64,000 nucleotides of DNA from the NCBI GenBank assembly GCA_034331105.1, contig JAXQGB010000006.1:40034-104033 (forward strand). Reading direction: 5' to 3'. The notes under the pieces were generated by a model. It was not told the origin of the DNA. It did not search any database and saw nothing but the letters and a program-made list of their open reading frames with translations. This DNA comes from Synergistota bacterium (lineage in GTDB: Bacteria; Synergistota; Synergistia; Synergistales; Synergistaceae). Position 1 is the first letter of the stretch. Each line of letters starts with the position of its first letter. Of this stretch, positions 6,861-24,018 are shown in pieces. A program made the translations under genes and the position numbers.

Positions 6861-8947
6861 TTTCCCTTGTCTTTCTCTTTTGCTTCCATTTCTTTCACAA
6901 GCTCGTTGTATCTTACCTTCCAGTCGCTCTTCTTCTCTTCCTGCTTATCTCCGCTCAGGGTCTTGTTGGGGTCGAGCATATCCTTTGTTACGCCTTCGTT
7001 CTTGATCGATTTTTCGTAATCGTCCTGATTCTTCATCAGTGTTCCGATCTCAGCCTGGCTAAGCTGCTGTCCTTCGCTGATTATGCTGTGGGTCATCCTT
7101 GAAGCGGCCCTGGGATCTTCCAGTATGTAAGGAGTCAGGAATATCATGAGGTCGACCTTTTCCCTCTGCTTTTCGCTGGATTTAAATAGGTTTCCAATAA
7201 GGGGGATGTATGAGAAGAAAGGCACCCTGTGCTTGAGCACTTTTTCTGCCTCCCTTATGAGGCCTCCGATTATTATCGTGTCTCCGTTGGCAACAAGGAC
7301 GTTTGTCTTAACTTCGCGTTTGGATGTTACAGGGGTCGGCGATCCCATCGTGGTAAGAAGATCCTCCACCCTCTGTTCTATCTCAAGGGCGACCAGGTTT
7401 CCGCTCCTTACATGCGGGGTGACAGACAAAATGAGGCCTACATCCTTGTACTCGTATGTGTTCTGAACAGCTCTCGGGTTGCTCGTATCTGTCAGGGTCC
7501 CCTTCAGCTGCGGGATGACCTGGCCTACCTGGAGATGGCTTGGAAGATTGTCGGTGCACATAAGCCGGGGCATCGAGAGTACGTTTATAGCATCAAACTT
7601 GTTAAGCATCTTTACATAGGTGTATATGAGCGCTTTGCCGTCCGTGTTGGTCGTCGTGTAAGTGTTCCCTGTAACAGGATTGGTATATATTTCCTCCGTT
7701 GTGATCAGTTTGTCGTAAAGGTCGATTATCTGGCCCGGGACCGAGGCGCTGCCCATCTGTATGTTTCCGGCGACCACCGCGTCACCGGCTATTCCGCCTC
7801 CCCAGGCTGCCCAGTCTATGCCGGCGCTGTTGAGTTTGTTAAGGTTGACTTCTGCTATCAGGCCGCGCAGCAGCACCTGCTTTGGCTGGATATCAAGCTG
7901 GACCAGTATCTCCTTGAGCGAGCCAAACTGTTCATGTGAGGCTGTGAAAACAAGACTGTTTGTAGGAAGGTCCGGGACCACCGAGGAAGGTATCGCTCCT
8001 TTGGGGTCGGGAGAAAGTTTGGCTGCTGTCGCGAGGATGCTGTTCATCTGTTCAGCGACGACTTTTGCATCTGCGTTCTGTAGGCGGTAGACATGGAAGC
8101 TTTCAGCTCGGGAAGGTACGTCCAGTATTTTTAGGATCCTTTCCGACTCCAGAAGGGCCTGGCTGCTTCCAATGAGGACGACACGCCTTGTCCTCTCGTC
8201 ACCCACCGCAAGAATGCCCGAAAGTCTGGATGAGGTGTCTTTGGACATAACATTCAGCTGAGATTCCACGACCTTTGGATTGGCATGTGTCAGGGTGAAT
8301 GCCTTTATGCTCCTTACGCTGTCCTGGGAGTCAAGAGCCCTTATCACGCTTACGGAACGGTTCAGGGCCGAGGCCTTGCCGGTAAGCAGTATCGCGTTTC
8401 CATTTTCAAGTGGTGTGACATTTATATCCGGTACAGCGGATCTGAGCGGTTCCGTGATGTAACCCGCCTTTACATGACGAAGTGGAACGACCTGGACAGT
8501 CAGGGCTTCACCGGGAGCTATGCTGCGGTCGCCCTTGAAAACGGTGTTGTTCAATGTCGGCCCAGAGCTGGCAGGCAATACCTTTGAATACCCGCCCATG
8601 TTCTGTATTGAGAGATTGTTCATCTCAAGCACGGAGAGCATTACTTCCCTTGCCTCTCTTAACGAGATAGTCTTTGGCGAGACGATAGAGACCTTACCTC
8701 CGACAGCGGGGTCCACGACGATATTTTCATTCAGGAGCTCCGACATGAATCTCAGGAACTTACTGATCTCAAGGTTGCTGAAGTTAAGCTGTACATTGTT
8801 TGACTGCCGCATCTGGCGGGCTGCCGCAGCAAGGTTTTGTTCCTCGTCAGTATTTTCCTGAGTCTGGGCATATGTGCATCCGGCAGATGAAGAGAAGATA
8901 AAGAAAAGTATAAAGATGAATGATAATAATCTGGTTTTTTTGAACAT
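6857..8947 (-). CDS. gspD: Secretin GspD
   Basis: 696 aa with a signal peptide, repeated secretin-N style domains and the C-terminal secretin core (...VPFFSYIPLIGNLFKSSEKQREKVDLMIFLTPYIL). ATGA overlap with gspE. Confidence 0.9.
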   Translation of the reverse strand: MFKKTRLLSFIFILFFIFSSSAGCTYAQTQENTDEEQNLAAAARQMRQSNNVQLNFSNLEISKFLRFMSELLNENIVVDPAVGGKVSIVSPKTISLREAREVMLSVLEMNNLSIQNMGGYSKVLPASSGPTLNNTVFKGDRSIAPGEALTVQVVPLRHVKAGYITEPLRSAVPDINVTPLENGNAILLTGKASALNRSVSVIRALDSQDSVRSIKAFTLTHANPKVVESQLNVMSKDTSSRLSGILAVGDERTRRVVLIGSSQALLESERILKILDVPSRAESFHVYRLQNADAKVVAEQMNSILATAAKLSPDPKGAIPSSVVPDLPTNSLVFTASHEQFGSLKEILVQLDIQPKQVLLRGLIAEVNLNKLNSAGIDWAAWGGGIAGDAVVAGNIQMGSASVPGQIIDLYDKLITTEEIYTNPVTGNTYTTTNTDGKALIYTYVKMLNKFDAINVLSMPRLMCTDNLPSHLQVGQVIPQLKGTLTDTSNPRAVQNTYEYKDVGLILSVTPHVRSGNLVALEIEQRVEDLLTTMGSPTPVTSKREVKTNVLVANGDTIIIGGLIREAEKVLKHRVPFFSYIPLIGNLFKSSEKQREKVDLMIFLTPYILEDPRAASRMTHSIISEGQQLSQAEIGTLMKNQDDYEKSIKNEGVTKDMLDPNKTLSGDKQEEKKSDWKVRYNELVKEMEAKEKDKGK

Positions 8948-9029
8948 GTCAGATCTCTCCCCGGTTGCTAGTATTTATCTCTGGATAGATGCTGTGATTT
9001 TTATGTTCTTCCGATTTCGTCTTCCTTTT

Positions 9030-9058
9030 TTTATAAACTTCCAGTAAAGGCTGTCCAA
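9030..9058 (-). promoter_or_regulatory. Candidate internal sigma70-type promoter ahead of gspD
   Basis: On the minus strand: TTGGAC, a 17-nt spacer, then TATAAA. It sits in the only sizeable gap (133 nt) inside the operon. Confidence 0.3.
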
Positions 9059-9080
9059 TAGAGGCGATAATGATACCCTA

Positions 9081-9479
9081 TCAGTCATAGGGCATATATA
9101 TGACGATATTCCGCTCTTCTTTCGTGTTGCTGACATTGATCTTTTTCCATCTCATATCTTCTTCGGCAACGATCATCTCTGCCTGTTCCGGAGCGGAAAG
9201 GTCAAGTCTCCCGAAATCCTCGCCGAACATTTCCTTTGTCCCGTCAGATGTTTCCCATATTATATCGCCGCTAGTGCCTGACGTCTGTACTGTTTCCAGC
9301 ATTATGCCTGTCCGGATAGCTTTTGCTTGTTGCATAAGCGTGATCTCGGACTTTGCCCCTCTGAGCCCTTCCTGTCCAAGCATAACAAGCTTTATTGCTG
9401 CGGTCGCAGTCAGGGACAGGATCACTACAGCCACCATAACTTCAACTAGTGTGAAGGCGCGTTTCCTTTTAATATTCAT
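9081..9479 (-). CDS. Minor pseudopilin (GspH/I-like) with a prepilin-type N-terminus
   Basis: MNIKRKRA-FTLVEVMVAVVILS: a methylation motif with Glu at +5 but Ala, not Gly, at -1. 132 aa. Confidence 0.7.
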   Translation of the reverse strand: MNIKRKRAFTLVEVMVAVVILSLTATAAIKLVMLGQEGLRGAKSEITLMQQAKAIRTGIMLETVQTSGTSGDIIWETSDGTKEMFGEDFGRLDLSAPEQAEMIVAEEDMRWKKINVSNTKEERNIVIYMPYD

Positions 9480-10450
9480 TTTACCTGATATTTTAATTCA
9501 AGAGGTTTGCCGGACCTTTCGACCTTTACGTCAAACCTTGTGCCGGACATCATGGAATTGACAGCGTTAGTGGCATCGCTGAGATTTGATATCTCGACTC
9601 CGTTTACTGCTTTTATTATATCGCCCTTCTGGACTCCGACCATACCCAGGACACTGTCAGGATCTATCCTTGCAAGCTGCATGCCGCCGCCCTCGGCAGG
9701 GATCATCCTCATTTTGGCTATCTCGTCATAAGGGTTCATCAGCAGCTTGTCCACCAGTTCCCTGGGGACCACTCCCTCTACCCCTTCCGATGCAGGCTCT
9801 ATCCCAGGATGTACCTTTTTTTGAGGGGCCTTTTTAGGGGGAGCGTTCCTTGGCTGAGGTCGGACTGAAGCCCTTTGCGGCGGTGTCATGTTGCCGGTTG
9901 AGATGTTCATAAACAGGAGATGTCCCTGACCACCCTTAAGGAGAGTGACTTGCAGGTATTTGACATTGTCCAGTTCGTAACCGTTTATCTCCTCGCCTTT
10001 CAATATGAAACGCGTTAAGGATCTGTCGCGGATCCAGGCTCCAATTCCGGGCAGCGTTCCTGCAAGGCTCATGTCTTCGATTTGATATGACTGATCGCCG
10101 GAACTGTTTTTGCCGTTACCCGGCATAAGAGCTCCAAAGGGATTTAAATCGGAAAAATCCCGGTAGGGATCGGCGTTCATAGAGTGGACAAGGGATGGAA
10201 CTCTTTTTGATATTGCCGCTGCAAGATCATATTTTGCCTCAGCCGATCTGTGCAGCAAAGAAAATTCCATGAAAAAACATATAACTGAGGCGATGATGAG
10301 GCCTGCAAGAAATGATACGGCAGAAAGAACTAAGTCCTTCGACTGCTTTTTACCGTCAGAGTGATACCCGTTTCTGAACAGCTCGCACATCTCATCTTTC
10401 AATTCGTACAAAATCGAGCTGAGGCCGTCTTTCACCTTGATATCCTCCAT
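9476..10450 (-). CDS. gspC: GspC-like protein: single TM segment plus a C-terminal PDZ domain
   Basis: TM segment LSAVSFLAGLIIASVICFF. C-terminal PDZ-like GMQLARIDPDSVLGMVGVQKGDIIKAVNGVEISNL. Sits before the secretin. Confidence 0.65.
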   Translation of the reverse strand: MEDIKVKDGLSSILYELKDEMCELFRNGYHSDGKKQSKDLVLSAVSFLAGLIIASVICFFMEFSLLHRSAEAKYDLAAAISKRVPSLVHSMNADPYRDFSDLNPFGALMPGNGKNSSGDQSYQIEDMSLAGTLPGIGAWIRDRSLTRFILKGEEINGYELDNVKYLQVTLLKGGQGHLLFMNISTGNMTPPQRASVRPQPRNAPPKKAPQKKVHPGIEPASEGVEGVVPRELVDKLLMNPYDEIAKMRMIPAEGGGMQLARIDPDSVLGMVGVQKGDIIKAVNGVEISNLSDATNAVNSMMSGTRFDVKVERSGKPLELKYQVK

Positions 10451-11031
10451 TCCCCGGAACCGATCTTTGTCAGGGGGATCACCTGCATATTGCTCAGCAT
10501 TTGAAGCGCCCTGTCAAACTCATCAGGAAAACGTGCGGTCATATCCGCGGCCACTATCTTACCCGTATCTTTTGAAATACTTAAAAAGCCCTTTGCCGAT
10601 ACGTCACCGGCGAGTGTAAGGTCATCCAGATATAGAGTGTCTCCGCCGGATCTTATATTTGCAGTGCCGGAGGTCCATTTGAGTTTTTGCTTTGTTACTG
10701 TTGTGATCTCACCGCTTCCGAAAGAGAGAGTTGCTGTTCGGGAGGCGGATATCAAAGATCTTATTACCTTCGGGTCCACCTTGGCTTCATTGACTTTTAT
10801 CGAGACTGCGGGCATGTCTGCGGTGATGCCTCTGTAGATGAATTCTCTATCCAGAAGACCCTCTGTGTAAATATCCCGGAATGAGATGAAGATATTTTTT
10901 TCTGAAGCTGACAAGGCAGCCCGGCTGGCGGAATATTCTGCCGCTGTGTCCCATGGAAAAAAGAGTGCCATGCCTGCAATAAGGCCGCATGATCCTGCAA
11001 AAATGATTTTAAGAGTTTTAGAGAGAGTCAT
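10432..11031 (-). CDS. Single-TM periplasmic protein in the GspN position
   Basis: 199 aa with N-terminal TM segment IIFAGSCGLIAGMALFF. Assignment rests on position and topology only. Confidence 0.3.
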   Translation of the reverse strand: MTLSKTLKIIFAGSCGLIAGMALFFPWDTAAEYSASRAALSASEKNIFISFRDIYTEGLLDREFIYRGITADMPAVSIKVNEAKVDPKVIRSLISASRTATLSFGSGEITTVTKQKLKWTSGTANIRSGGDTLYLDDLTLAGDVSAKGFLSISKDTGKIVAADMTARFPDEFDRALQMLSNMQVIPLTKIGSGEWRISR

Positions 11032-11491
11032 CGCCGGTTGCTCCTATCAGCATTGATGCGTTAATGAGCCTTCCCTTTTGAGCGGAATTTATAGCCCTTA
11101 TATCTGCCGTCCTTACCTGAAGGCCCTTTTCGGAGAGGCGCTTCAGGAAAGAGATAAATTCCGCTCCGTTCAGTGCGGTCATCTGAACGGTCAGCCCTGA
11201 TGATCCTGAGTTCATCAACCCCACTTGGCCTTTCAGGTTGAGTTCATTTATCGCATCCGTGAGGAGAGACAAAGGCTCTCTGCCCTCTGCAGAACTTCTT
11301 GAAGGATATGAATAAAAGGTATTTGCCGCATCAAGGATCCTTCCCGTGTCCATGATCCTCTCTTTGCTGCTGTTCAGAATGGCCGAAGCTTCCAGAAAGA
11401 GCGCTGTCCCCGCTGTCCAGACTAAAAGTGCGAGCAGCCCAAGGCGGATCAGCTTTTTTGTCTCAGGCAGTCCCCTCATCTCATCTATCAT
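11018..11491 (-). CDS. GspM-like single-TM protein
   Basis: 157 aa with N-terminal TM segment LGLLALLVWTAGTALFL. ATGA overlap with the upstream GspL-like gene. No motif-level proof. Confidence 0.4.
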   Translation of the reverse strand: MIDEMRGLPETKKLIRLGLLALLVWTAGTALFLEASAILNSSKERIMDTGRILDAANTFYSYPSRSSAEGREPLSLLTDAINELNLKGQVGLMNSGSSGLTVQMTALNGAEFISFLKRLSEKGLQVRTADIRAINSAQKGRLINASMLIGATGDDSL

Positions 11492-12708
11492 TTTGGCCCG
11501 CTCCTCTCGGAACTTTCAAGCCCAATAGAAAAACGCATTCCTGAACCCGGTATCTGTTGGATGTCAGATATCTTCGCATTGAAGCCGTTTTTATTCAGGG
11601 AATCGCGAAGGGATTCAACGGGAACGCTTCCGGCCGCTGTGCCCTGGATCTCAGTCCGCTCAGTCCCGTATCTGATCGCATCAAGTTTCAGCGATCCTGA
11701 TGAAGCAGATGCTATCCATGCAGCCGCTATATTGTCCAGAGTCTGTTCCATGGTCATGTTCGTCCCGCCCGCGCCGAGGTTCTTAATTTTTGCTGCGGAA
11801 GATGCCAGCGGGCTGTTGGATCTCTCTCCAAAAGCTATTTCGTAAATTTCAAAGGGGACGTTCTCAAAATGATCCCTGTTGAGTCTGCTGTAAAAAAAAG
11901 CTCCTGCCGAGAGGACAAGAAACAAGAGGCCGAGGAAGAGCGCAGCCCTGGCTGTGCTGAAGGCCGCTGCGAAAAAGGATTCCAATTTTCTGGCACTGTC
12001 GGCGCCTTTCGTTGAAAGGTCAAGGGAGGCCGAGCCCTTGAATGACCTCAGGGTCTCACTTCCTGCTTTTTGGATACTTGTTGCAGAAAGAGATGATCTT
12101 TCTGCAAGGATTATATTATCTATCGGGACGTCTGCGGATAGCGAGTAATCGACAAACCATTTCTCAAGGTCATTCACGGAGTTTTCTGCGGAAGGTGTCC
12201 ATTTGTACAGTAGAGGAGAACGGTCCTTAAAAAGCATTCCGGAGGTCCCGCTTTCAGAGTTCCATATTGCCAGGCCACTACCCTCTGTCTCATGGAACAT
12301 GGCCAGTGGGGCCGGCCAGAAAGTTATGCAGTCGCCCAGCCTTCCTTCTGTCTCCTCTATTTCGGCCTTCGAAACGAACCATACGACTCCCTCTGTCCTG
12401 TCAGATCCCTGTTCTGTCACCTGGGGTATCATGAGGATGGAATCGTCATCGTTTCCGAGCGCATACCTGAATGACATCTTCAGGGCATCTCTCAACCTCC
12501 CGTTTTTCCCGAAGGGGAAGGAGAATGGATGGACTGAGAGCGTCCTGAGCTGAAGGAGCGCGATGACCCGTACGTTCTGTGCAGAAGGCAGGGCAACATT
12601 GCGATCGACAATATCCTCTTCAGTACAGAAACGGATATTTTCATCCATTTTTGCATTGCTCCTCGCATTTTGTGAGAATAAGTCTTTCAGTTTGTTGGAA
12701 ACTGTCAT
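11488..12708 (-). CDS. GspL-like bitopic assembly-platform protein
   Basis: 406 aa: about 255 aa cytoplasmic, TM segment FLGLLFLVLSAGAFF, about 130 aa periplasmic. This is the classic GspL topology and position (after gspK, before the M-like gene). Confidence 0.5.
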   Translation of the reverse strand: MTVSNKLKDLFSQNARSNAKMDENIRFCTEEDIVDRNVALPSAQNVRVIALLQLRTLSVHPFSFPFGKNGRLRDALKMSFRYALGNDDDSILMIPQVTEQGSDRTEGVVWFVSKAEIEETEGRLGDCITFWPAPLAMFHETEGSGLAIWNSESGTSGMLFKDRSPLLYKWTPSAENSVNDLEKWFVDYSLSADVPIDNIILAERSSLSATSIQKAGSETLRSFKGSASLDLSTKGADSARKLESFFAAAFSTARAALFLGLLFLVLSAGAFFYSRLNRDHFENVPFEIYEIAFGERSNSPLASSAAKIKNLGAGGTNMTMEQTLDNIAAAWIASASSGSLKLDAIRYGTERTEIQGTAAGSVPVESLRDSLNKNGFNAKISDIQQIPGSGMRFSIGLESSERSGPK

Positions 12709-15409: not shown

Positions 15410-16690
15410 TTACCTCATCAGCTGCAGCAGCCCCATGCTGAAGATAGGGAAATATGTAAAGAGAAGCAGGCATCCGACCATTGCCACGAAGGCAGGTATG
15501 ATTTCTCTAGAGATATCTTCTATGCTTTCTCCGGATATGGCAGAGGCTACGAAGAGGTTTATCCCGTATGGCGGCGAGATAAAGCCGCAGGCAAGGTTGA
15601 CGGTGATTATGAGCCCAAAGTGTATCGGGTCTATTCCTATCATCTTGACTACCGGAAGCAGTATAGGCGTCAGGATGATGACTGCGGCAATGTTGTCCAC
15701 GAAGCAGCCGATGACCAGAAGAAATACGTTGATGATCATGAGGAGGAGAAATGGGCTGTCAACGAATGTAATGAGCCATGCAGCTATCTTTGCCGGTATC
15801 TGTGCCATCGCAAGATAGCTCGCGAAGGCCATCGAAAGGCCGATAAGGAACGAAGTGGCGCCGTTTATGAGTCCTGTAGATTTGAGGCAGTCGTAAAGGA
15901 CCTTCATGGTGAGTTCACGGTATACGAATTTTCCAATGATGACGGAGTAGACAACTGCGACAACTGCAGCTTCCGTGGGTGTGAAAATTCCGCCGTATAT
16001 TCCGCCCAGTATTATGACCGGAACAAGCATTGCCCAGAAAGATTCTTTAAAAGCTTTTGCAACTTCTGAAAACTTGGGGCGTTCATTCAGTGTAAGGTAT
16101 TTACGTTTTTTTGCAGTGCCGTAGCATACAGCCATCAAGGCGATGCCGATTATGATCCCCGGGATGATCCCTGCGATGAACATGTCCCCGATCGAGCACT
16201 GAGCTACTACACAGTAGATGACGAATGGGATGCTGGGAGGGATGATAACTCCTATAGTTCCTGCAGCAGCAGTTATCGCAGCCGCGAAGCCACCGTCATA
16301 TTTTCTCTCTTTCATGGAAGGTATCATAAAAGAACCGATTGCTGAAACTGTAGCAGGCCCCGATCCGGAGATCGCCGCGAAGAACATGCACGCGAGGACC
16401 GTTACCATCGCAAGGCCTCCGACGATGTATCCGACGAGGCTCTCCGCAAGGGCTACAAGCCGGCGGGAAATGCCTCCGTTGCACATCAGTGCGCCTGCCA
16501 GGATGAAGAAAGGAATTGCCAGCAGTGGGAAAGAATCCAGCCCTGTCACAGATTTCTGGGCGAGCATTATCATAGGGATGTCAGACGTCAGCCACATCGC
16601 TATGCCTGTTGCGAGTCCAAGAGTTATTCCGATAGGGATACTAAGCGCTATTGTTATTATCAGGATAGAAAAAAGAATAACAGCTTCCAT
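15410..16690 (-). CDS. dctM: TRAP transporter large permease
   Basis: 426-aa polytopic protein of DctM-type composition, directly downstream of the small permease. Confidence 0.9.
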   Translation of the reverse strand: MEAVILFSILIITIALSIPIGITLGLATGIAMWLTSDIPMIMLAQKSVTGLDSFPLLAIPFFILAGALMCNGGISRRLVALAESLVGYIVGGLAMVTVLACMFFAAISGSGPATVSAIGSFMIPSMKERKYDGGFAAAITAAAGTIGVIIPPSIPFVIYCVVAQCSIGDMFIAGIIPGIIIGIALMAVCYGTAKKRKYLTLNERPKFSEVAKAFKESFWAMLVPVIILGGIYGGIFTPTEAAVVAVVYSVIIGKFVYRELTMKVLYDCLKSTGLINGATSFLIGLSMAFASYLAMAQIPAKIAAWLITFVDSPFLLLMIINVFLLVIGCFVDNIAAVIILTPILLPVVKMIGIDPIHFGLIITVNLACGFISPPYGINLFVASAISGESIEDISREIIPAFVAMVGCLLLFTYFPIFSMGLLQLMR

Positions 16691-16701
16691 GATCCCGCCC
16701 C

Positions 16702-17208
16702 CTATTCCGCTGTCTTTGCTGCCTGTATTGCCGGGGCAGGAAGTCCGTTTTTATGCAGCTTATACATTTCAACGAAGAGCCTTAGACACATTAGTGCACA
16801 TCCAATAGGTACAGATGCGTAGGGCCATGTCATCGGTATCTGCATAGCAGCTGATTCCTGCCCTGTTTCCTGCAGGAAGATCAGGAGCATCGTTCCCTGC
16901 CATGCGAGGAAAAAACTGAATACGAACCATACTATCAAAATCATATATTCAAAATATATGCGTGATTTCCCTTTTATCATGTTTGCGAACATTTCGACCC
17001 TGAAGTGGCTTCTTTCTTTCACTGCGTAACTTGCGCCTATCCAGGACAGCCAGAGAAAAATGAAACGGGCCAGTTCTTCACTCCAGGAGAGCGAGTTTGA
17101 AAAAACGTATCTCATTACGACCTGAATAAAGACTATAACTGTCATTATTGCCATTGTCCAAACACAGAAGTACTCTTCAATATTATCAAGGAATTTACTA
17201 ACAGACAT
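16702..17208 (-). CDS. dctQ: TRAP transporter small permease
   Basis: 168 aa with four hydrophobic segments, located between the DctP and DctM genes. Confidence 0.8.
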   Translation of the reverse strand: MSVSKFLDNIEEYFCVWTMAIMTVIVFIQVVMRYVFSNSLSWSEELARFIFLWLSWIGASYAVKERSHFRVEMFANMIKGKSRIYFEYMILIVWFVFSFFLAWQGTMLLIFLQETGQESAAMQIPMTWPYASVPIGCALMCLRLFVEMYKLHKNGLPAPAIQAAKTAE

Positions 17209-17233
17209 CGCAGGTACGACCTCCTCTTAATGC

Positions 17234-17268
17234 AAAAAAGCCGCTTCCGTCCCGCAGGGCGGAAGCGG
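17234..17268 (-). terminator. Intercistronic hairpin plus U-run between dctP and dctQ (partial terminator or attenuator)
   Basis: Stem GCCGCTTCCG...CGGAAGCGGT followed by TTTTTT on the minus strand. AAGAGGAGG RBS for dctQ follows. Confidence 0.5.
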
Positions 17269-17285
17269 TGGTGCAAATATTGCTC

Positions 17286-18278
17286 TTATTTCTGTACTTT
17301 TTTGATTATTTCCATAAGATCCTTGCCGAGATCCTTTTCGAACATCGGGTAGACCTTGGCTGTCGCTTCTACAAAGGGTTTCTTTTCTTCAGCTGTAAGG
17401 GAGTTTGCTTTCATTCCGGCCTTGATTACTTTTTCCTTGAATGCGCCTTCCTCTTTTTCCATAAGCTGACGCTGTTTTGCTGTGGCGTCCTTGGCAGCCT
17501 TTACTACGAGCTTGTTGAGGTCTGCGGGGAGTTTTTCCATGAATTTCTTGTTTGCGATGAGGATCTCGTAGGAGAAGACATGTCCTGTCTCGGAAACAAA
17601 CTTCTGTACTTCGTAGAATTTACCGTCGTCGATCATTGCATAGGGGTTTTCCTGTGCGTCAACAGTTCCCTGCTGCAGAGCGGTATAGAGTTCGCCCCAG
17701 CTCATGGGTGTGGGGTTGGCTCCAAGTGCCTTGAAGAATGCGAGGTGCATCGGGTTTTCCATCGTACGGATCTTCAGCCCTTTGAGGTCTGCAGGGCTCT
17801 TAATGGGTTTCTTGCTGTTGGTGACGTGGCGGAATCCGTTCTCCTGGTAGCCGAGGATAAGGATGCCTTTGGCAGCCAGGAAGCCGTTGAGTTTTTCTCC
17901 GAGAATACCGTCTACTGCTTCAAATGCTGCCTTTCTGGTGGTGAAGAGATAGGGCAGGTCGAGAGCCTGGATCCTCTTGTCAAATCCTGCGAGAGGTGAT
18001 GAAGAGGGAATAGCCATCTGAATTGTACCCATCTGTACCCCTTCTGAAAGCTCACGGTCGCCACCCAGCTGTCCGTTGGGATAGAGCTCTACCTTGATCC
18101 TACCCTTTGAGCCCTCTTCGACCTGTTTCACGAAGACTTCTTTCATTGCCTTCATTGTCGGGTGCGAATCAGAACCGATGTAACCAACCTTGATAGTGTA
18201 TTCCGGAGCCGCGAAAGCGGTGCCTGCGAATACTGCTACTACTAAAATTACCATAAATACTGACAAAAGCTTCTTCAT
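17286..18278 (-). CDS. dctP: TRAP transporter substrate-binding protein
   Basis: Signal peptide MKKLLSVFMVILVVAVFAGTAFA. DctP-type body (KVGYIGSDSHP..., ELYPNGQLGGDRE). Confidence 0.9.
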   Translation of the reverse strand: MKKLLSVFMVILVVAVFAGTAFAAPEYTIKVGYIGSDSHPTMKAMKEVFVKQVEEGSKGRIKVELYPNGQLGGDRELSEGVQMGTIQMAIPSSSPLAGFDKRIQALDLPYLFTTRKAAFEAVDGILGEKLNGFLAAKGILILGYQENGFRHVTNSKKPIKSPADLKGLKIRTMENPMHLAFFKALGANPTPMSWGELYTALQQGTVDAQENPYAMIDDGKFYEVQKFVSETGHVFSYEILIANKKFMEKLPADLNKLVVKAAKDATAKQRQLMEKEEGAFKEKVIKAGMKANSLTAEEKKPFVEATAKVYPMFEKDLGKDLMEIIKKVQK

Positions 18279-18321
18279 TTGCTGTTTCCCCCTTTGATTT
18301 TTTGCTTATTACAGAATTATA

Positions 18322-18343
18322 GAAAACGCCCTTTATCGGGCGT
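18322..18343 (-). terminator. Weak hairpin between the AcnX genes and dctP
   Basis: Stem ACGCCC / GGGCGT followed by TTTTCT on the minus strand. Confidence 0.35.
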
Positions 18344-18354
18344 AACTACCTGAT

Positions 18355-18783
18355 TTATGCCTGTTTATTCTTCCTCACGCGGATCTCGCCCTTGTCTGCA
18401 TCGACCTCTACGTAGTCACCGTCAGCGATGGCGTCATATGGATCTGCCTCCATGCGGTCGACCATCGTGCATTCTACCATAACAGCAGATGATACTATAA
18501 CCGGTTCTGTGTCGATGAGAATTATCGCAGCCGGGAGATTGTTCTTCACCCAGAGCTGATAGAAACCGTCGACCTGTACAACGGAGCTGCCCTTGCCTGA
18601 TTTGAGCACGAGTATCTTGTTTGCAATGCTTTTGCCGTGTATCGAATGATTTCTTTCGATGACAGTGCCTGTCTCGGGGTCGGTCAGGTAGAAACACATC
18701 GCGTCAGTGGAGACGACAGCCTCTCCGCATGCGCTGCCCTTTACTATCTTGCGGCACTTATAGACCTTCATATCCTCAGACAT
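18355..18783 (-). CDS. Aconitase X swivel-domain subunit (DUF126)
   Basis: MSEDMKVYKCRKIVKGSACGEAVVS...ILVLKSGKGSSV...LPAAIIL. The start at 18783 forms a TAATG overlap with the large-subunit stop; the upstream extension in the ORF track is rejected. Confidence 0.75.
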   Translation of the reverse strand: MSEDMKVYKCRKIVKGSACGEAVVSTDAMCFYLTDPETGTVIERNHSIHGKSIANKILVLKSGKGSSVVQVDGFYQLWVKNNLPAAIILIDTEPVIVSSAVMVECTMVDRMEADPYDAIADGDYVEVDADKGEIRVRKNKQA

Positions 18784-20000
18784 TAGTCCAGCCTCCCTTT
18801 TATTGCTGCCTCGACACACTCTGAAAGTCTGCGGATAGCGAATGGCTGTCCGCGGCGCTCCCTGTAGTATGCGCACTTAGGAGAGTCTGTCACTCCAAGG
18901 CTGCCTTCGAATGACTTCCAGCAAGGTTCGTCGATGCAGGTGTTTCCGACCATACGGACTCCCAGGAGCTCCAGCTTCTGGCGGAGGCGGGAACGCTCGG
19001 CAAGCTCAACGGCTCCGGATTCCGCAAGGATCCAAAAGGCGGTGTTGTGACTGACTTTCCTCCCGGCGAAGAGCCTTTCGATTTCAAGGATCTGGCTGTA
19101 TGTGTAGTGGGGGCAGCCAAGCATTACCAGGTTGATGTCACCTGTAGCTGCTGTGAGTTTTGTCTCCTGATCTTTCAGTGTTTTGTTGGTTATAAGTGCT
19201 GTGGGGGCCGGAACTTTTTTGCCGCCGAAAGCTGCTTCGAGCGTTGGTGCCTCAGGCGTTATGCCCACCATGTGATACATCGCCACGGCTCCGCTTGTCG
19301 CGGCCTCGGCTCCGAAGTAAAGGAAGTCTTCCTGCGAGGGAATCACCTTGTTTTTGAATACAAGGACAGGGTCAAGCGATCCTGCCATCTCTCCGATGCA
19401 GTGACCGAGGATGCCCCAGTCGTAGGATTCGCTGAGTTCTGCATCGACTTCAATAAGAATGTCGCCGTGCCTGTTTTCGTCGAGGTGGTATCCGTAATAA
19501 GGGGTCTTTCCGACAACTGCGGCAGCAAGTGCGCTTATTGATGACTCACGGTTTGAGCGTGCGCCCAGGGCGCCGTTGACGTATGGAGTTGCGCTTGACT
19601 CCGAAAATGCTATGTGCTCTCCAAAAAAGGGAACGTTGGAGCATACTCCGGGAGCGCAGTGGTATGTCAGTATCGCGCCTATCTTGCGGTATGCTTCACC
19701 TGTGCGGTTAGCGAGATCGAGTTCCTCTTTTGTAACGTCGTAGAATTTGGTAAGGTAATCAGTGTCCCAGTAAGGGTTGGTCGTTGGCGGAACAGCGCAG
19801 GTGGCGCCTCCCCCGACAAGGAGCTCGCACCAGTAGGTGTCGCCCTCCTGTCCGCTTAGCGCGACATGAGCGCGCTTTATCGGGATCAGCTTTTCCGCGT
19901 CGAAGGTGAGCCCGAGCGCATAGAGCATTTCCATTGCTTTCTGCTTTCCGGCGCCTTCAGCTCCGTCAAGTATCCGTTTCTCTTCATCTGTAAGAAACAT
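18783..20000 (-). CDS. Aconitase X catalytic subunit (DUF521)
   Basis: MFLTDEEKRILDGAEGAGKQKAMEMLYALG N-terminus. 405 aa, paired with a DUF126 gene. Confidence 0.8.
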   Translation of the reverse strand: MFLTDEEKRILDGAEGAGKQKAMEMLYALGLTFDAEKLIPIKRAHVALSGQEGDTYWCELLVGGGATCAVPPTTNPYWDTDYLTKFYDVTKEELDLANRTGEAYRKIGAILTYHCAPGVCSNVPFFGEHIAFSESSATPYVNGALGARSNRESSISALAAAVVGKTPYYGYHLDENRHGDILIEVDAELSESYDWGILGHCIGEMAGSLDPVLVFKNKVIPSQEDFLYFGAEAATSGAVAMYHMVGITPEAPTLEAAFGGKKVPAPTALITNKTLKDQETKLTAATGDINLVMLGCPHYTYSQILEIERLFAGRKVSHNTAFWILAESGAVELAERSRLRQKLELLGVRMVGNTCIDEPCWKSFEGSLGVTDSPKCAYYRERRGQPFAIRRLSECVEAAIKGRLD

Positions 20001-20020
20001 AGTCAGCCGCCTTTCTTGTC

Positions 20021-21310
20021 TTAAATATTTTCGATGACCGGCAGTGAAATGCCGCCCTTAGGAATAATGCCTATAGTAGCTCCGGGGATCAGACGCATTG
20101 CTTCATCAAGTGCAGCCTGAACTGTGGGGAATGGCGTGTACTGCATCGCGGCAAGGTCTTCTTTGCTCAGGCCGTCAGAGACGCAGAATATTTTTGCCTT
20201 GTCCCTGGCCCGGCAGTTGCAGACAGAAAGCACTGCAGAGACCATGTCAGCATCGACATCTTCAGGGGAAGCCGCAGCCAGCCTTCTGAGGACCTCGTCC
20301 ATGGGCAGAGACAGCCACTCCCTGAAACGGGGATGGTTGTGTGCCAGGCCTTCTGTGCAGGGGGCAGCGAATATCATGACACCGCCCTCTTTTACTGCGA
20401 AATATGCACAGCTTGTGCCTTTGCAGGCCTGCCAATAGTCCATGTCTGAGGGTGAGGAGCTTACGATTACGATATCTGCTGGTTCCGGCACACTTATACT
20501 GTAGGATCTTTTTGCAAGCTTTACTCCCTCTCTGTGGGCCTTGATGAAATCTCCTGCGAATATCCCGGCGATCTCTCCATCATAGTTCTTTACAGTGTTG
20601 ACGATAAAGGCAAGCCCTGCGATCTTTGCGACCTCTTCCATTCCCATGCGGCATGGATTGCCGTCTGCCATCCCGAGTGGTATGTCCGGGCAGAAGCCTG
20701 CGGCAGCGTGGGTTGCTGATGTCGTAACGAAGTCACAGACTCCCGGCTGAAGTATCTTTGCGCCGCCCGAATAGCCGGCATCGCAGTGCGGAACGATATT
20801 CCCTATGCCGACAAGGAGGTCTGCCCCCAGTGCGTATTTATTTACGTGTACAGGGATCTTATAATCACCGGCGGCTACTGTTCCGAGATCCATCATGTCT
20901 TCGCTCACGGTTGCATCGTGCTGTACAATTTTGAAGCGCCTTATCATTTCAGGACCGAGTTTTTCGAGTATCTCTTCGTTGGTCATGAGCCTGTGGGTGC
21001 CGGGAGCTGTGAGGAAACTCATAGCGCTGTCCGGAACACCGTTTTCGTTCAGGTAGTCTGTAATGATAGGCATGATTATGTGGAGAGGGGTGCTTCTGGT
21101 GTTGTCCTCGACCAAAAATACAATATCTTTTTTGCCCCTGGCGAGGTCTTTGAGTGAGGGTTTTCCAATAGGCGATTCAAGCGCGGAAATAAGAGCGCTT
21201 TTCAAATCCCTGAGACCGGGAATGCTGGTCATCTTTCCTTCGAATATGACAGATCCTTCCGGTGCCTCAAAATATTCTTTCCTGTCTCCGTATGGTATGT
21301 CGTATCTCAT
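20021..21310 (-). CDS. LarA-like (DUF2088) nickel-pincer-dependent hydroxyacid racemase/epimerase family protein
   Basis: N-terminal IVFLVEDNTRSTP...APGTHRLMTNEE and GNIVPHCDAGYSGGAKILQPG (His and Lys context as in LarA). Confidence 0.7.
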   Translation of the reverse strand: MRYDIPYGDRKEYFEAPEGSVIFEGKMTSIPGLRDLKSALISALESPIGKPSLKDLARGKKDIVFLVEDNTRSTPLHIIMPIITDYLNENGVPDSAMSFLTAPGTHRLMTNEEILEKLGPEMIRRFKIVQHDATVSEDMMDLGTVAAGDYKIPVHVNKYALGADLLVGIGNIVPHCDAGYSGGAKILQPGVCDFVTTSATHAAAGFCPDIPLGMADGNPCRMGMEEVAKIAGLAFIVNTVKNYDGEIAGIFAGDFIKAHREGVKLAKRSYSISVPEPADIVIVSSSPSDMDYWQACKGTSCAYFAVKEGGVMIFAAPCTEGLAHNHPRFREWLSLPMDEVLRRLAAASPEDVDADMVSAVLSVCNCRARDKAKIFCVSDGLSKEDLAAMQYTPFPTVQAALDEAMRLIPGATIGIIPKGGISLPVIENI

Positions 21311-21331
21311 CAGATATGCCCTTTCATGGCA

Positions 21332-21349
21332 TGTGACTTGTGTGTCACA
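21332..21349. promoter_or_regulatory. Inverted repeat TGTGAC-N6-GTCACA in the LarA-like gene leader
   Basis: Read directly from the sequence, 22 nt upstream of the start codon at 21310. Confidence 0.3.
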
Positions 21350-21360
21350 AGTATGTAGTC

Positions 21361-21368
21361 TGTATACA
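21361..21368. promoter_or_regulatory. Candidate GntR-family operator (palindrome TGTATACA), copy 1
   Basis: Perfect palindrome within cTGTATACAt. Fits the GntR/FadR-type t.GT-N-AC.a pattern. Lies in the divergent intergenic region. Confidence 0.35.
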
Positions 21369-21617
21369 TGTAAAGATTATACCATTCCGTTTTGGCGTTA
21401 CCTTAATGAATAGACCGACTGATAAAAATGTTTGTCTAAATATGTGTGCATAATAGTATCTGCTAATATTTATGTCAACTCTGAAATTTGTGAACTCTCT
21501 TATATCAAAGGTTCAGCCTGTAAACAGATTTTTTCCCACCGATCCGGCCGGATGTAGGATATTGCTGGTCATTCAATGAGATATATGGACAAAAATGTGA
21601 TAAAGATGTATGTTTGC

Positions 21618-21625
21618 TGTATACA
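21618..21625. promoter_or_regulatory. Candidate GntR-family operator (palindrome TGTATACA), copy 2
   Basis: The same 10-mer cTGTATACAt, 30 nt upstream of the GntR start codon. Confidence 0.35.
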
Positions 21626-21654
21626 TATAAGTAAAATTAATGGAGGGTGTCATA

Positions 21655-22311
21655 ATGCATGACCGCGAAAAGGCCAGCTGGACTAAAGCTTACGAGTGGA
21701 TCCGTGACGCTATAGAATCAGGCGAGATAGAGATGGGGGCTCCATTGCCCGAAAACCAGCTTGCCAGGGAGATAGGAGTCAGCAGAACACCTATCCGTGA
21801 AGCCCTGCGCAGCTTGGAACAGGACGGATACGTTAAGATAATTCCCCAAAAAGGCGCATTTGTATCAGAAATATCCCTCGAGGATCTTAAAGAGATATAT
21901 GACATCCGCAAACTGCTGGAACCCTTCGCGGCTCTTTCAGCGGTAAACAGGATCCCGGAAGAAGAGATAGACGAGATGGAGAAAGGCTGGAAAGCCCTCA
22001 AAAAGGCTGCGCTTGCAGGAGAGGTAGACCTGACACGTGTCTCTGAGATGGATCTGCTGCTCCATATGACGATCACCAAATATGCGACCAATAAGAGGAT
22101 CGGTGCCATCATAACAACATACCACGCCCAGATAAAGCGCTTCCAGAAGCTTTCTGCGCAGTCACTTTCCAACATACATGAAACTATAGGCCAACACCTT
22201 GAGATACTGGAAAAATTGCGTGAGAGGGATGCCAGGGGCCTCTCATCTCTGCTCTACGAACATATCGCAAAAAGCGAGAGCAATATAATGAAAGATTATT
22301 TTCTTAAGTAA
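21655..22311 (+). CDS. GntR family transcriptional regulator (FadR/FCD type)
   Basis: wHTH LPENQLAREIGVSRTPIREALRSLEQDGYV plus a helical C-terminal domain. ATG at 21655 lies 6 nt after GGAGGG. Confidence 0.85.
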   Translation: MHDREKASWTKAYEWIRDAIESGEIEMGAPLPENQLAREIGVSRTPIREALRSLEQDGYVKIIPQKGAFVSEISLEDLKEIYDIRKLLEPFAALSAVNRIPEEEIDEMEKGWKALKKAALAGEVDLTRVSEMDLLLHMTITKYATNKRIGAIITTYHAQIKRFQKLSAQSLSNIHETIGQHLEILEKLRERDARGLSSLLYEHIAKSESNIMKDYFLK

Positions 22312-22338
22312 ATAAGATAGCCGGAGGAAAATATCATT

Positions 22339-24018
22339 ATGAAATTCAGAAGTTCCGAAATACTTTCAGATCCGGTGTTTACAGAAAACAGGGCTCTTTA
22401 TAAATCCATGGGCTTCTCTGACGAAGACCTAAAAGGTCCGCTGATAGGGATAGCAAACTCATGGAACGATCTGGTGCCCGGACATTACAACCTCAGGAAC
22501 CTTGCCGATTTCGTCAAAAAAGGAATTTACAGGGCAGGCGGCATGGCGGTCGAGTTTGGCGTAATAGCCGCCTGTGACGGACAGTCATGCGGACATAACG
22601 GCATGAAATACATACTCCCCACCAGAGACCTTATAGCATGCGACATCGAAGCAATGGCGGAAGCCCACAGGCTTGACGGCATTGTTATGCTTGGATCCTG
22701 CGACAAGATAGTTCCGGGCATGCTGATGGCGGCCGCCAGGCTGGGCATTCCGGCGATATTGCTTGTTGGCGGACCGATGGCCGGAGGCGTTTCTTTTGAC
22801 GGACGCAAAAGCGACTCCACCTCTGTATCGGAGGCCGTGGGAATGCTGAGCGCCGGACGGATCACCAAAGAGACTTTATCAATGCTTGAAGACAACGCAG
22901 CACCCTCATGCGGTTCATGCTCATACTACGGTACCGCCAACTCGATGGGCTGTGCGGCAGAGGCAATGGGAATGTCCCTCCCGGGATCGGCCCTGATCCC
23001 GGCTACAAGCGCTGCCCGCTCCAGGGCAGCGGAGGAGACGGGGAAAAAGATCGTAGAACTTGTCAGGCAAGGACTCACAGCGCATGACATCATTACGAAA
23101 GACTCCCTTGAAAACACCGCGAAGATAATGGTCGCGACAGGCGGCTCGACTAACTGCTTCATACACCTTTCAGCCATAGGGAATGAGATTGGCATAGCTC
23201 CCGGGACCATGATAGATATTTACGACAGGGCGAGTCAAAATATCCCGTCTGTCGCCATGGTAAATCCTGCCTCAGAGTACGATATGGAGGACTTCTACCG
23301 CGCCGGAGGCATCCCGCAGGTCATGAAGGAACTGAGGGACGAGGTCGACCTCTCTTGCATGACTGTAAGCGGAAAAAGCCTCGGCGAGAACCTTGAGAAG
23401 ATGTCAAGTCCTTTAGGAGTTGACCGGCGTGTGATCCGCACCAAGGAAGATCCTTTCTGCAAATCTGGCGGTCTGGCAGTGATGCGGGGGAACCTCGCTC
23501 CGGGGACAGGGATCACAAAACCCATCGCAATGGATCCGTCGATGTACCATTTTTCCGGACCTGCAAGAGTCTTTGACTGTGAAGAAGATGCGAACCGGGC
23601 TATCCTTGACGGGAATATAAAAGAGGGCGATGTCCTTGTCATCCGTTACGAGGGCCCGAAAGGCGGCCCCGGAATGCGTGAAATGTATTTTGCCATGAAA
23701 CTGCTTTACGGCAGGGGCCTTGCAAAAAAGACCGCGATAATTACAGACGGCCGTTTCTCCGGAACCAACAACGGCTGCTTTGTCGGCCACATATCCCCCG
23801 AAGCCGCTGAAGGTGGCCCCATAGCCGCAGTCAGGGACGGAGACATCATCACCATAGATGTTGAAAATAAAAAACTGGATGTAGACCTCTCTCCCGAGGA
23901 GCTTGAAGCCCGCCTAAAAGATTGGAAAAGACCTCCTCAGAAGGAACTGAAAGGCATCCTGGGCATATACGCAAAACTCGCTGCCTCAGCAGCAGAAGGC
24001 GGAATGATGAAAGTCTAG
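22339..24018 (+). CDS. IlvD/Edd family dehydratase (dihydroxy-acid or sugar-acid dehydratase)
   Basis: 559 aa with GIANSWNDLVPGH, GSCDKIVPGMLMAA, ITDGRFSG motifs. The context suggests a sugar/hydroxy-acid substrate rather than branched-chain amino acid biosynthesis. Confidence 0.85.
   Translation: MKFRSSEILSDPVFTENRALYKSMGFSDEDLKGPLIGIANSWNDLVPGHYNLRNLADFVKKGIYRAGGMAVEFGVIAACDGQSCGHNGMKYILPTRDLIACDIEAMAEAHRLDGIVMLGSCDKIVPGMLMAAARLGIPAILLVGGPMAGGVSFDGRKSDSTSVSEAVGMLSAGRITKETLSMLEDNAAPSCGSCSYYGTANSMGCAAEAMGMSLPGSALIPATSAARSRAAEETGKKIVELVRQGLTAHDIITKDSLENTAKIMVATGGSTNCFIHLSAIGNEIGIAPGTMIDIYDRASQNIPSVAMVNPASEYDMEDFYRAGGIPQVMKELRDEVDLSCMTVSGKSLGENLEKMSSPLGVDRRVIRTKEDPFCKSGGLAVMRGNLAPGTGITKPIAMDPSMYHFSGPARVFDCEEDANRAILDGNIKEGDVLVIRYEGPKGGPGMREMYFAMKLLYGRGLAKKTAIITDGRFSGTNNGCFVGHISPEAAEGGPIAAVRDGDIITIDVENKKLDVDLSPEELEARLKDWKRPPQKELKGILGIYAKLAASAAEGGMMKV

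Follow-up and report, generated by a model that had tools for sequence, protein, structure and literature searches.

A probable repressor-controlled hydroxy-acid catabolic locus of Synergistota built from two uncharacterised enzyme subclasses

Introduction

Which hydroxy acid is handled by a locus that places a nickel-dependent racemase homolog and two iron-sulfur dehydratases beside a carboxylate importer? The question is raised by positions 15,410 to 24,018 of a 64,000-nucleotide stretch of DNA, here called the window, from a Synergistota bacterium (assembly GCA_034331105.1, contig JAXQGB010000006.1, positions 40,034 to 104,033), where genes for a LarA homolog, the two subunits of aconitase X (AcnX) and the tripartite ATP-independent periplasmic (TRAP) transporter DctPQM diverge from genes for a GntR regulator and an IlvD paralog. 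An earlier note on this DNA regarded it as an uncharacterised hydroxy-acid locus and proposed that a sugar acid or a hydroxy-amino acid is imported, epimerised at C2 and dehydrated. Most LarA-homolog and aconitase X subclasses are without a known substrate, and a conserved pairing of the two, accompanied by a binding protein and a repressor of its own, offers a testable handle on two orphan clades. The window genome is a metagenome-assembled genome of 2.2 Mb, 99.7% complete and probably from groundwater; metagenomes from sediment, sludge and digesters contain nearly identical DNA. We describe here a probable repressor-controlled hydroxy-acid catabolic operon assembled from two uncharacterised enzyme subclasses, in which each protein is, as judged from its sequence, a clear member of its superfamily and falls into none of the characterised specificity groups.

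Results

A conserved LarA-AcnX core

The eight genes, whose calls were checked by open reading frame listing and by Pfam and NCBIfam profile searches, all lie where the earlier note had placed them (Table 1). The minus-strand unit reads larA-like, acnX-large, acnX-small, dctPQM, with intergenic gaps from larA-like to dctM of 20, -1, 76, 77 and 11 bp, and it diverges from a plus-strand unit in which gntR, encoding an FCD-type regulator, is followed after 27 bp by the ilvD paralog. The acnX-small start is read as the ATG at 18783-18781, overlapping the TAA of the large subunit (TAATG), which suggests translational coupling. Beyond the 3' end of dctM lie lgt and type II secretion genes, unrelated to the locus.

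A pattern scan of 185,579 species genomes, one genome per species, retrieved 39 loci. LarA is adjacent to AcnX in about 27 of them, distributed among many Synergistota, five Thermoleophilia and one deltaproteobacterium, and the LarA-AcnX core (with TRAP and GntR genes) recurs across three phyla. Of 151 evenly sampled Synergistota genomes, 39 contain this AcnX, and an AcnX gene lies within 5 kb of some 21 of the roughly 27 LarA orthologs. Since the adjacency recurs in both surveys, the clustering claimed by the earlier note is not a product of chance.

Two groups of AcnX take part in these loci. Group A, the window type, is 57-98% identical and in almost every case has dctPQM behind it; group B, which shares about 45% identity with A, lies upstream of larA and is the sole form outside Synergistota. 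Many loci carry both, one on each side of larA. LarA itself is a dispensable accessory, as a sister strain with an internal larA deletion shows: in this closed genome of the same genus (L054:8880-9175, G055:C1) a larA remnant lacking residues 59-387 constitutes a natural knockout, flanked by ilvD, gntR, acnX and dctPQM genes that are 93-97% identical to those of the window. In several genomes AcnX-A and the TRAP genes occur with a D-2-hydroxyacid dehydrogenase gene (L057), or with nothing, in place of LarA.

The LarA homolog and its cofactor supply

Full-length alignments of the LarA homolog were obtained both with malate racemase Mar2 (6d6z, E 6e-67) and with lactate racemases. Against 2yjg, 6d6z and 5huq, phmmer and profile alignments show that the catalytic histidines H106 and H175, the lysine tether K185 and the nickel-ligand histidine H201 are all kept, together with R72, Q294 and K297 (in LarA1 H108, H174, K184, H200, Arg75, Gln295 and Lys298), and these residues are invariant or near-invariant in 12 homologs. 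Loss of the His/Lys cofactor residues, by which the earlier note thought its reading might fail, has thus not occurred. The same note had seen no larB, larC or larE in the window, which is correct; the genome search finds all three elsewhere, in one copy each, unlinked to the locus and over the curated cut-offs (Table 1). The window protein is the sole LarA of its genome.

Substrate specificity was read at the positions equivalent to LarA1 F175, F176, W358 and T359 (Urdiain-Arraiza et al., PMC11770544). The window protein has C176, D177, V360 and L361 there, and this C/S-D-V-L pattern fits none of the LAR, MAR, GntE and HGR signatures; the lysine that binds the second carboxylate of malate in the malate racemases (MAR; PMC11770544) is absent. 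The protein scores under the cut-offs of all NCBIfam families of LarA homologs, the best being malate racemase (293 vs 500). Among 32 aligned sequences from the window and related loci, all except that of L034 have an aspartate at position 177 and/or 360, the Thermoleophilia proteins having lost D177 and gained D360. A hydroxy-amino acid cannot be the substrate of this LarA, which excludes for it one of the two substrate types suggested earlier. For none of the 25 groups of LarA homologs in Table S1 of Desguin 2020 is the AcnX COG listed as a neighbour.

Two orthologs depart from the catalytic pattern: in L031:2795-4102 the equivalent of His106 is a proline, and in L034:1549-2814 the cofactor-tethering lysine is a methionine and the loop aspartate an alanine. 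These copies may be decaying or re-purposed.

An aconitase X of neither known type

The best PDB match of the AcnX large subunit is the archaeal phosphomevalonate dehydratase TkAcnX (7cnr_A, E 3.5e-55), and the equivalents of Tk Cys110, Cys283, Cys342, Glu129, Ser130, Ser131, Lys361 and Tyr365 are kept; in the small subunit, the catalytic serine of the GKGS motif (Ser62(S)) is kept relative to TkAcnX-S (7cnr_B). The roles of the TkAcnX and AtAcnX residues in binding the cluster, the carboxylate, the leaving hydroxyl, the phosphate and cis-3-hydroxy-L-proline (C3LHyp) are those given in PMC8184944. The phosphate loop is remodelled: Gly48 is deleted, Asn53 is replaced by Glu52 with Asp54 nearby, and of the set Gly48-Val49-Ser50/Asn53/Asn79 only the equivalents of Ser50 and Asn79 remain, so that the protein lacks the full phosphate-binding set of a Type-IIb mevalonate-5-phosphate dehydratase. 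The C3LHyp-binding residues Asp203, Ile206, Thr72 and Trp35 are likewise replaced, by Ala47, Ser49, Val and Tyr, and the NF051439 score is 203 vs a cut-off of 700. Because the phosphate loop is changed and the C3LHyp landmarks are absent, the window AcnX can be placed by its residues among the Type-II subclasses that Watanabe et al. mention without an assigned function (PMC8184944), that is, within the uncharacterised Type-IIc-f space, as neither the C3LHyp nor the phosphomevalonate type.

The remodelled acidic loop, 'HVA-x-S-x-Q-[ED]-x-D' (E52/D54), is common to both AcnX groups, and since it is shared, AcnX-A and AcnX-B probably act on related substrates or on stereoisomers.

In six Synergistaceae loci, the gene for the AcnX-B large subunit upstream of larA contains an in-frame TGA at codon 353 (Table 1), and the phylum survey flagged the same TGA in five more genomes. 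The codon stands at the position of the third cluster-ligand cysteine ('DT-C-ID', Tk Cys342), which is Cys in the other AcnX-B proteins. An invariant hairpin resembling a selenocysteine insertion sequence, GUGCCGCC-UUGUU-GGUGGC, lies 7 nt downstream of the TGA; the Cys forms have a weaker version of it. All four searched genomes with a TGA-bearing AcnX-B contain selB, as does the window genome. Selenocysteine is therefore a strong candidate, on sequence grounds, for an Fe-S cluster ligand in AcnX-B; we found no report in the literature of selenocysteine as a cluster ligand of aconitase X.

The transporter and the IlvD paralog

A solute-binding protein and a small and a large membrane subunit within one operon make up a complete TRAP system. 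The AlphaFold2 model of DctP (pLDDT 89) has as its nearest PDB neighbour the TRAP solute-binding protein 4p47 (Z 40.6, rmsd 1.4 over 305 residues); Z scores to TRAP solute-binding proteins range from 35 to 41, and identity to the nearest solved ones is 36-42%. Among TRAP solute-binding proteins, 4pdh, 4p9k and 4pdd probably bind D-erythronate, and 4pak and 4nq8 pantoate; these ligands were not used as evidence.

The window genome has four IlvD/Edd paralogs. With TIGR00110, the window IlvD reaches 656 bits vs a cut-off of 618, and the copy on contig C12 (339962-341632) reaches 758; at a distance of 3.6 kb from the latter, an open frame matches the aconitase family (leuC-like) weakly. By these scores the C12 gene would be the housekeeping copy and the window gene a paralog of it. 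The window IlvD belongs to an orthogroup with 53-98% identity, which includes the locus-linked proteins of L025 (55%) and L049 (69%), and is 37-44% identical to the paralogs of its own genome. Its nearest solved relative is the dihydroxy-acid dehydratase (DHAD) of M. tuberculosis (6ovt, E 4e-135), and the metal, cluster and serine motifs are kept (CDG..GH, CDK, CGSC and TDGRFSG), the pocket motifs CSYYGTAN and SGTNNGCF of the orthogroup replacing CSGMFTAN and SGATRGAS.

As a member of the cluster, IlvD holds its place in part. It adjoins the other genes within the genus of the window genome and in L025, L049 and G100, which represent three further lineages, and it does so in three arrangements: divergent together with gntR, after dctM (L025, L049), and as ilvD-gntR (G100). 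In another genus 13-15 kb separate it from the cluster, linkage is often lacking altogether, and some genomes that have it lack AcnX; the membership that the earlier note assigned to it is thus facultative only.

Two further IlvD/Edd paralogs, G000:C14:347514-349277 and G000:C17:13902-15581, have CGA or CGS for CDG and CDS or CDN for CDK, and score below the ilvD cut-off. Since the active-site motifs are lost and the scores are low, they probably have other functions.

Control of the locus

The regulator has the winged helix-turn-helix (PF00392) and FCD (PF07729) domains of the GntR/FadR type, with palindromic putative operators in its own control region. The 10-mer CTGTATACAT occurs twice in the 329-bp divergent region, at 21360-21369 and 21617-21626, and a TGTATACA-like site is found at both equivalent positions in 10 orthologous divergent loci (LarA identity 56-93%), one directly upstream of gntR and the other 50-60 bp upstream of larA. 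The 8-mer TGTATACA occurs 23 times in the 2.2-Mb genome, and this is the only locus with two intergenic copies; no wider TGTATACA regulon is evident, the five other intergenic sites adjoining unrelated transporter, signalling and housekeeping genes. A GntR/FCD homolog accompanies the cluster in 19 related loci, with 57-95% identity where it is divergent and 30-41% where it is co-directional. Because paired TGTATACA sites are rare in the genome and conserved in position among orthologous loci, gntR-ilvD and larA-acnX-dctPQM very probably form one predicted local regulon. The genes do not fall into separate, unrelated transcription units and regulons, an outcome against which the earlier note had guarded: the two units diverge from a common control region with conserved operators. 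Upstream of the operator nearer to larA stands the best sigma-70-like predicted promoter for the larA operon (21478-21450, minus strand, 11/12 matches).

In three metatranscriptome runs (Logan contigs), contigs 90-95% alike cover dctP, acnX and larA, and some of them bridge dctQ/dctP and acnX-small/large; these RNA-library contigs come from relatives and DNA carry-over is possible, so that transcription is not proven by them. The depth of Logan contigs cannot rank genes, and a gap in cover at ~18243-18449 is uninformative.

In the 76-bp gap between acnX-small and dctP, a consensus scan picks out a GC-rich hairpin followed by a T-run on the minus strand (Table 1). It may act as a partial terminator or processing site, partly uncoupling expression of the transporter from that of the enzymes.

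Gene neighbours in related loci

Genes of histidine utilisation (hut) and one-carbon (C1) folate metabolism recur near the core, often in the same operon: a second urocanase paralog, hutI, ftcD, fchA, fhs and hutH (Table 1). Hut genes lie in or adjoin the locus in the related loci L026, L040, L049, L056 and L059 and in Thermoleophilia only. The linked urocanase is a distinct second paralog (585-635 bits with TIGR01228) among up to three urocanase classes in Synergistota, the others being the common hutH-linked form (~440 bits, ~680 aa) and, in some deep lineages, a canonical form (~960-990 bits). The second paralog was found in 15 of the 151 genomes; AcnX is present in 12 of these 15, and in at least 8 no more than 20 kb separate the paralog from the cluster. 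HutU is present in 39 of 39 AcnX-positive genomes vs 105 of 151 overall, a statistic that relatedness among the genomes weakens. With the model for S-methyl-thiourocanate hydratase the second paralog scores 625-644, below the cut-off of 880, and nothing relevant to an ergothioneine or thiourocanate link of this paralog was found in the literature. In the window genome, hutH-hutU-hutI lie on contig C15.

Cloacibacillus-type loci have a class-I aminotransferase gene, predicted to be co-transcribed with gntR, at the place of ilvD in the window, and in L027 genes for EtfBA and a GlcD-like FAD dehydrogenase stand directly upstream of larA.

Other kinds of neighbour were also observed. In L061 (G100; 8495-12235), a locus otherwise of the ilvD-gntR / larA-like-acnXA type, genes for a three-subunit molybdoenzyme of the xanthine-dehydrogenase family (2Fe-2S, molybdenum cofactor, FAD) lie between acnXA and dctPQM, which hints at N-heterocycle metabolism. 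Genes for MttB-family (quaternary-amine type) methyltransferases lie within a few kb of acnXB-larA in Thermoleophilia (L043:1-1395, L048:5590-7461 and L053:5431-7038).

Table 1. Features of the locus in the window, and of the window genome and related loci
Feature	Position	Strand	Evidence or gene order
dctM, TRAP large permease	15410..16690	-	PF06808 397 bits; TIGR00786 435 bits, over cut-off
dctQ, TRAP small permease	16702..17208	-	PF04290 129 bits
dctP, periplasmic solute-binding protein, N-terminal signal peptide	17286..18278	-	PF03480 325 bits
Terminator-like hairpin, predicted	18326..18343	-	consensus scan only
acnX small (swivel) subunit, 142 aa	18355..18783	-	PF01989 82 bits
acnX large subunit, 405 aa	18783..20000	-	PF04412 389 bits
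LarA homolog, 429 aa	20021..21310	-	PF09861 (Lar_N) 161.8 bits, 1.6e-47; PF21113 (LarA_C) 40.9 bits; both over cut-off
Divergent control region, 329 bp	21311..21639	.	two TGTATACA putative operators
gntR, FadR-subfamily (FCD) regulator	21640..22311	+	PF00392 + PF07729
ilvD paralog, DHAD-like Fe-S dehydratase	22339..24018	+	PF00920 + PF24877; TIGR00110 656 bits
larB, window genome	C11:239487-240101		255 bits
larC, window genome	C14:55492-56613		442 bits
larE, window genome	C14:88488-89258		240 bits
In-frame TGA of AcnX-B	L026:9414-9416; L021:6144-6146; L030:3804-3806; L035:9412-9414; L051:9325-9327; L024:797-799		
Synergistota urocanases	G000:C15:148669-150288; L040:15788-17506; L026:17930-19636; L056:7439-9139; L059:2232-3950		
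Related locus	L040		gntR-acnXB-larA-dctP-(two hutG-like ureohydrolases)-hutI-hutU-dctQ-dctM
Related locus	L026		hutH / gntR-acnXB-larA-fhs-acnXA-dctPQM-hutU-hutI
Related locus	L056		hutH-gntR-acnXB-hutU-2-hydroxyacid dehydrogenase-hutI ... acnXA-dctPQM
Related locus	L049		ends in ilvD-hutH
Related loci	L059/60; G111		hutU-hutI-fchA-ftcD-fhs + formate channel, 8 kb from an A-type larA-acnXA-dctP/gntR locus like that of the window
Related loci	Thermoleophilia		dehydrogenase-acnXB-larA-fchA; hutI, ftcD, hutH nearby

Discussion

The locus is best explained as a catabolic module for an imported small hydroxy-carboxylate that would be repressed by its GntR(FCD) regulator. DctPQM would import the substrate; the LarA homolog, loaded with the nickel-pincer nucleotide that the unlinked larB, larC and larE would supply, would invert the C2-hydroxyl, making both epimers usable; and the two-subunit [4Fe-4S] AcnX would dehydrate it. 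The IlvD paralog, which would be co-transcribed with the repressor, may serve as a second, facultative dehydratase of the regulon, and the pathway would deliver a 2-oxo acid or an enoate to amino-acid fermentation. We give this generic core of import, epimerisation and dehydration a probability of about 0.8; it retains the scheme of the earlier note, which is still the most economical. The order of the steps, the reaction chemistry and the substrate are what we infer from the observed gene content, intact catalytic residues, cofactor genes, conservation of operon and operators, and gene neighbourhoods. No assigned pathway for orthologous clusters was found in the literature, as the earlier note had supposed, and no paper found there joins aconitase X, AcnX or DUF521 with LarA, TRAP or urocanate.

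As to the substrate, a sugar acid or a dicarboxylate is disfavoured, because the ~45 loci show neither a sugar-acid kinase nor an aldolase, because the recurrent neighbours are aminotransferases, 2-hydroxyacid dehydrogenases and Hut/C1-folate genes, and because the pockets of LarA and AcnX are acidic and free of lysine. The sugar acid of the earlier proposal loses ground accordingly. What these observations favour instead is a 2-hydroxy or 2,3-dihydroxy acid that corresponds to a basic amino acid. The leading candidate would be a histidine-derived imidazole hydroxy acid, whose product would feed into the Hut pathway, for which the genome has genes at another place; to an imidazole or other basic amino-acid-derived hydroxy acid we give a probability of roughly 0.38. 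Two reaction schemes can be envisaged. By the first, the substrate would be a 2,3-dihydroxy acid and would lose its beta-hydroxyl and alpha-hydrogen to yield a 2-oxo acid such as imidazole-pyruvate, which an aminotransferase would convert to the amino acid; both characterised AcnX enzymes remove these two groups (PMC8184944), as IlvD does, and this route would account for IlvD and the aminotransferases. By the second, imidazole-lactate would chelate the cluster through its 2-hydroxy and carboxylate groups, as isocitrate does in aconitase, and be dehydrated to urocanate; this would account for the urocanase linkage and is without precedent.

Several points weigh against a histidine-derived substrate. 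No hut gene adjoins the window locus and the window genome is without the second urocanase paralog. As the hut genes lie elsewhere in the genome and the support comes from related loci, the histidine link is second-order; with hut on another contig and the paralog missing, the figure for the substrate is held under 0.4. The hut-integrated loci, moreover, always hold an AcnX-B, ~45% identical to the AcnX-A of the window. A hutH over cut-off is kept in 5 of 5 tested genomes with hut-linked clusters, and the module is therefore not a simple replacement of histidine ammonia-lyase. On the side of the chemistry, IlvD has no role in a route from imidazole-lactate to urocanate, there is no precedent for the direct dehydration of a 2-hydroxy acid in which an imidazolium alone makes the C3-H acidic, and nothing was found in the literature on an imidazole-lactate dehydratase. 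Finally, the GntE sugar-acid epimerases are also acidic, with a Glu in the same loop (PMC7583248), so that an acidic pocket is no proof of a basic substituent. The most specific form of the histidine reading, a new entry route in which an imported imidazole or basic 2-hydroxy acid would be racemised by LarA and dehydrated by AcnX directly to urocanate (or a dihydroxy analogue to imidazole-pyruvate), with a selenocysteine cluster ligand in the paralog of some relatives, is a speculative proposal that we consider rather improbable.

The strongest competitor, essentially the earlier sugar-acid scheme, is a funnel for stereoisomers of a small neutral monocarboxylate with 2,3-dihydroxy or polyhydroxy substitution, for example glycerate, erythronate/threonate or 2,3-dihydroxybutyrate. 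LarA would epimerise C2, and AcnX and IlvD would each dehydrate one diastereomer, both arriving at a common 2-oxo acid, be it pyruvate, 2-oxobutyrate or 4-hydroxy-2-oxobutyrate. A substrate of the 2,3-dihydroxy type would be compatible with LarA, AcnX and IlvD alike, given what both AcnX reactions remove; the IlvD/Edd enzymes are 2,3-dihydroxy-acid dehydratases whose motifs the window paralog keeps; LarA homologs epimerise glycerate, 2,3-dihydroxybutyrate and 2,3-dihydroxyisovalerate (PMC11770544); the nearest solved solute-binding proteins include a sugar-acid binder (7bbr, 35% identity) and an isethionate binder (8t9t); the acidic loop residue is shared with gluconate epimerases; and a minimal gene set suits a product that is a central 2-oxo acid. 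This account, however, leaves the repeated hut/C1-folate integration and the aminotransferases unexplained, the GntE signature (E,V,A,H) differs from that of the window LarA, and the kinase, aldolase or dehydrogenase usual for sugar acids is absent from the ~45 loci. We regard it as possible, at somewhat lower odds than the imidazole-type substrate.

It is improbable that there is no single pathway at all, with IlvD a second dihydroxy-acid dehydratase of branched-chain amino-acid synthesis, beside the regulator by chance, and with LarA, AcnX and TRAP unrelated. The TIGR00110 equivalog score, the IlvD orthologs that are unlinked or in AcnX-less genomes, and the genomes with AcnX-A and no LarA could all be read in this way; against it stand the better ilvD near the leuC-like match on C12, the linkage of IlvD to the cluster in three different arrangements, the conserved operators common to gntR-ilvD, and the LarA-AcnX adjacency kept across phyla.

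A module for C4/C5 hydroxy-dicarboxylates (malate, tartrate, 3-methylmalate or 2-hydroxyglutarate) is marginally less probable still. LarA would then be a malate/tartrate-type racemase and AcnX a fumarase- or tartrate-dehydratase-like enzyme delivering fumarate or oxaloacetate, a central metabolite. The closest characterised relative of the window LarA is indeed the malate racemase Mar2, its best NCBIfam match is the MAR family, whose members also epimerise tartrate (PMC11770544), and in L049 a citrate-lyase gene set adjoins the cluster. The idea is nevertheless down-weighted because the MAR lysine is absent: this residue and the preceding H/Q, at LarA1 W358/T359, are replaced by V360/L361, and the Tyr-Lys of the Mar2 loop by Cys-Asp. 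The score lies far under the MAR cut-off, and a substrate with two carboxylates would meet repulsion from the acidic residues of both pockets, in LarA and in AcnX.

Least probable, by a small margin, is that AcnX dehydrates C3LHyp or another beta-hydroxy amino acid, as the bacterial two-subunit Type-IIa enzymes do (PMC8184944): Synergistota are amino-acid fermenters and the small-subunit Tyr is aromatic like the ring-stacking Trp35 of AtAcnX, but the other three C3LHyp residues are replaced, the NF051439 score is far too low, no proline or hydroxyproline genes lie nearby, and LarA has both catalytic histidines of true 2-hydroxy-acid racemases.

If the imidazole entry route existed, the aconitase superfamily would gain a new class of reaction, and this LarA clade its first physiological role in a pathway. 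If the substrate is a hydroxy acid derived from an amino acid (imidazole-lactate, for example), the module could account for the way in which amino-acid fermenters among the Synergistota, in digesters, sediments and guts, live on hydroxy acids that other microbes excrete. The larA deletion in the sister strain provides a ready genetic control, and the putative selenocysteine/cysteine pair of AcnX-B proteins a ready chemical one.

Comparison with known systems

The window LarA shares with its superfamily (Mar2, 6d6z; L. plantarum LarA, 5huq) the Lar_N/LarA_C layout and the catalytic, cofactor and carboxylate residues, and differs from the characterised groups in staying below every cut-off and in a signature unlike those of the LAR, MAR, GntE, HGR and hydrophobic-racemase groups. 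In the case of AcnX, the likeness to the Type-II enzymes extends to the split large and swivel subunits (DUF521/DUF126), the three Cys ligands of the cubane cluster, the catalytic serine, and the residues holding the carboxylate and the leaving hydroxyl; the known AcnX pathways, in contrast, have neither a LarA nor a TRAP partner, and the window AcnX has both. The IlvD paralog is a full-length two-domain protein like DHAD (6ovt), has the cluster, Mg and Ser motifs and passes TIGR00110, but has its own pocket motifs, is the paralog of a better ilvD, and lies in one unit with a catabolic repressor.

Relatives embed LarA, AcnX and TRAP genes in operons with hut and C1-folate genes; the canonical Hut pathway runs through HutH, HutU and HutI, then FtcD/FchA or HutG. 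The window locus, however, contains none of the genes of that pathway, the linked urocanase is not the housekeeping HutU of the phylum, and no canonical step needs a racemase or an aconitase-type dehydratase.

The lct operon of Acetobacterium woodii comprises a GntR regulator, EtfBA with an FAD-dependent lactate dehydrogenase, a permease, and the lactate racemase LarA. The logic of a regulator, an importer and a LarA, by which both enantiomers become usable, is shared with the window locus, and the EtfB-EtfA-GlcD-like arrangement of L027 is similar; in the window, on the other hand, there is no dehydrogenase, the LarA is not of the lactate type, and the consuming enzyme would be the Fe-S dehydratase AcnX.

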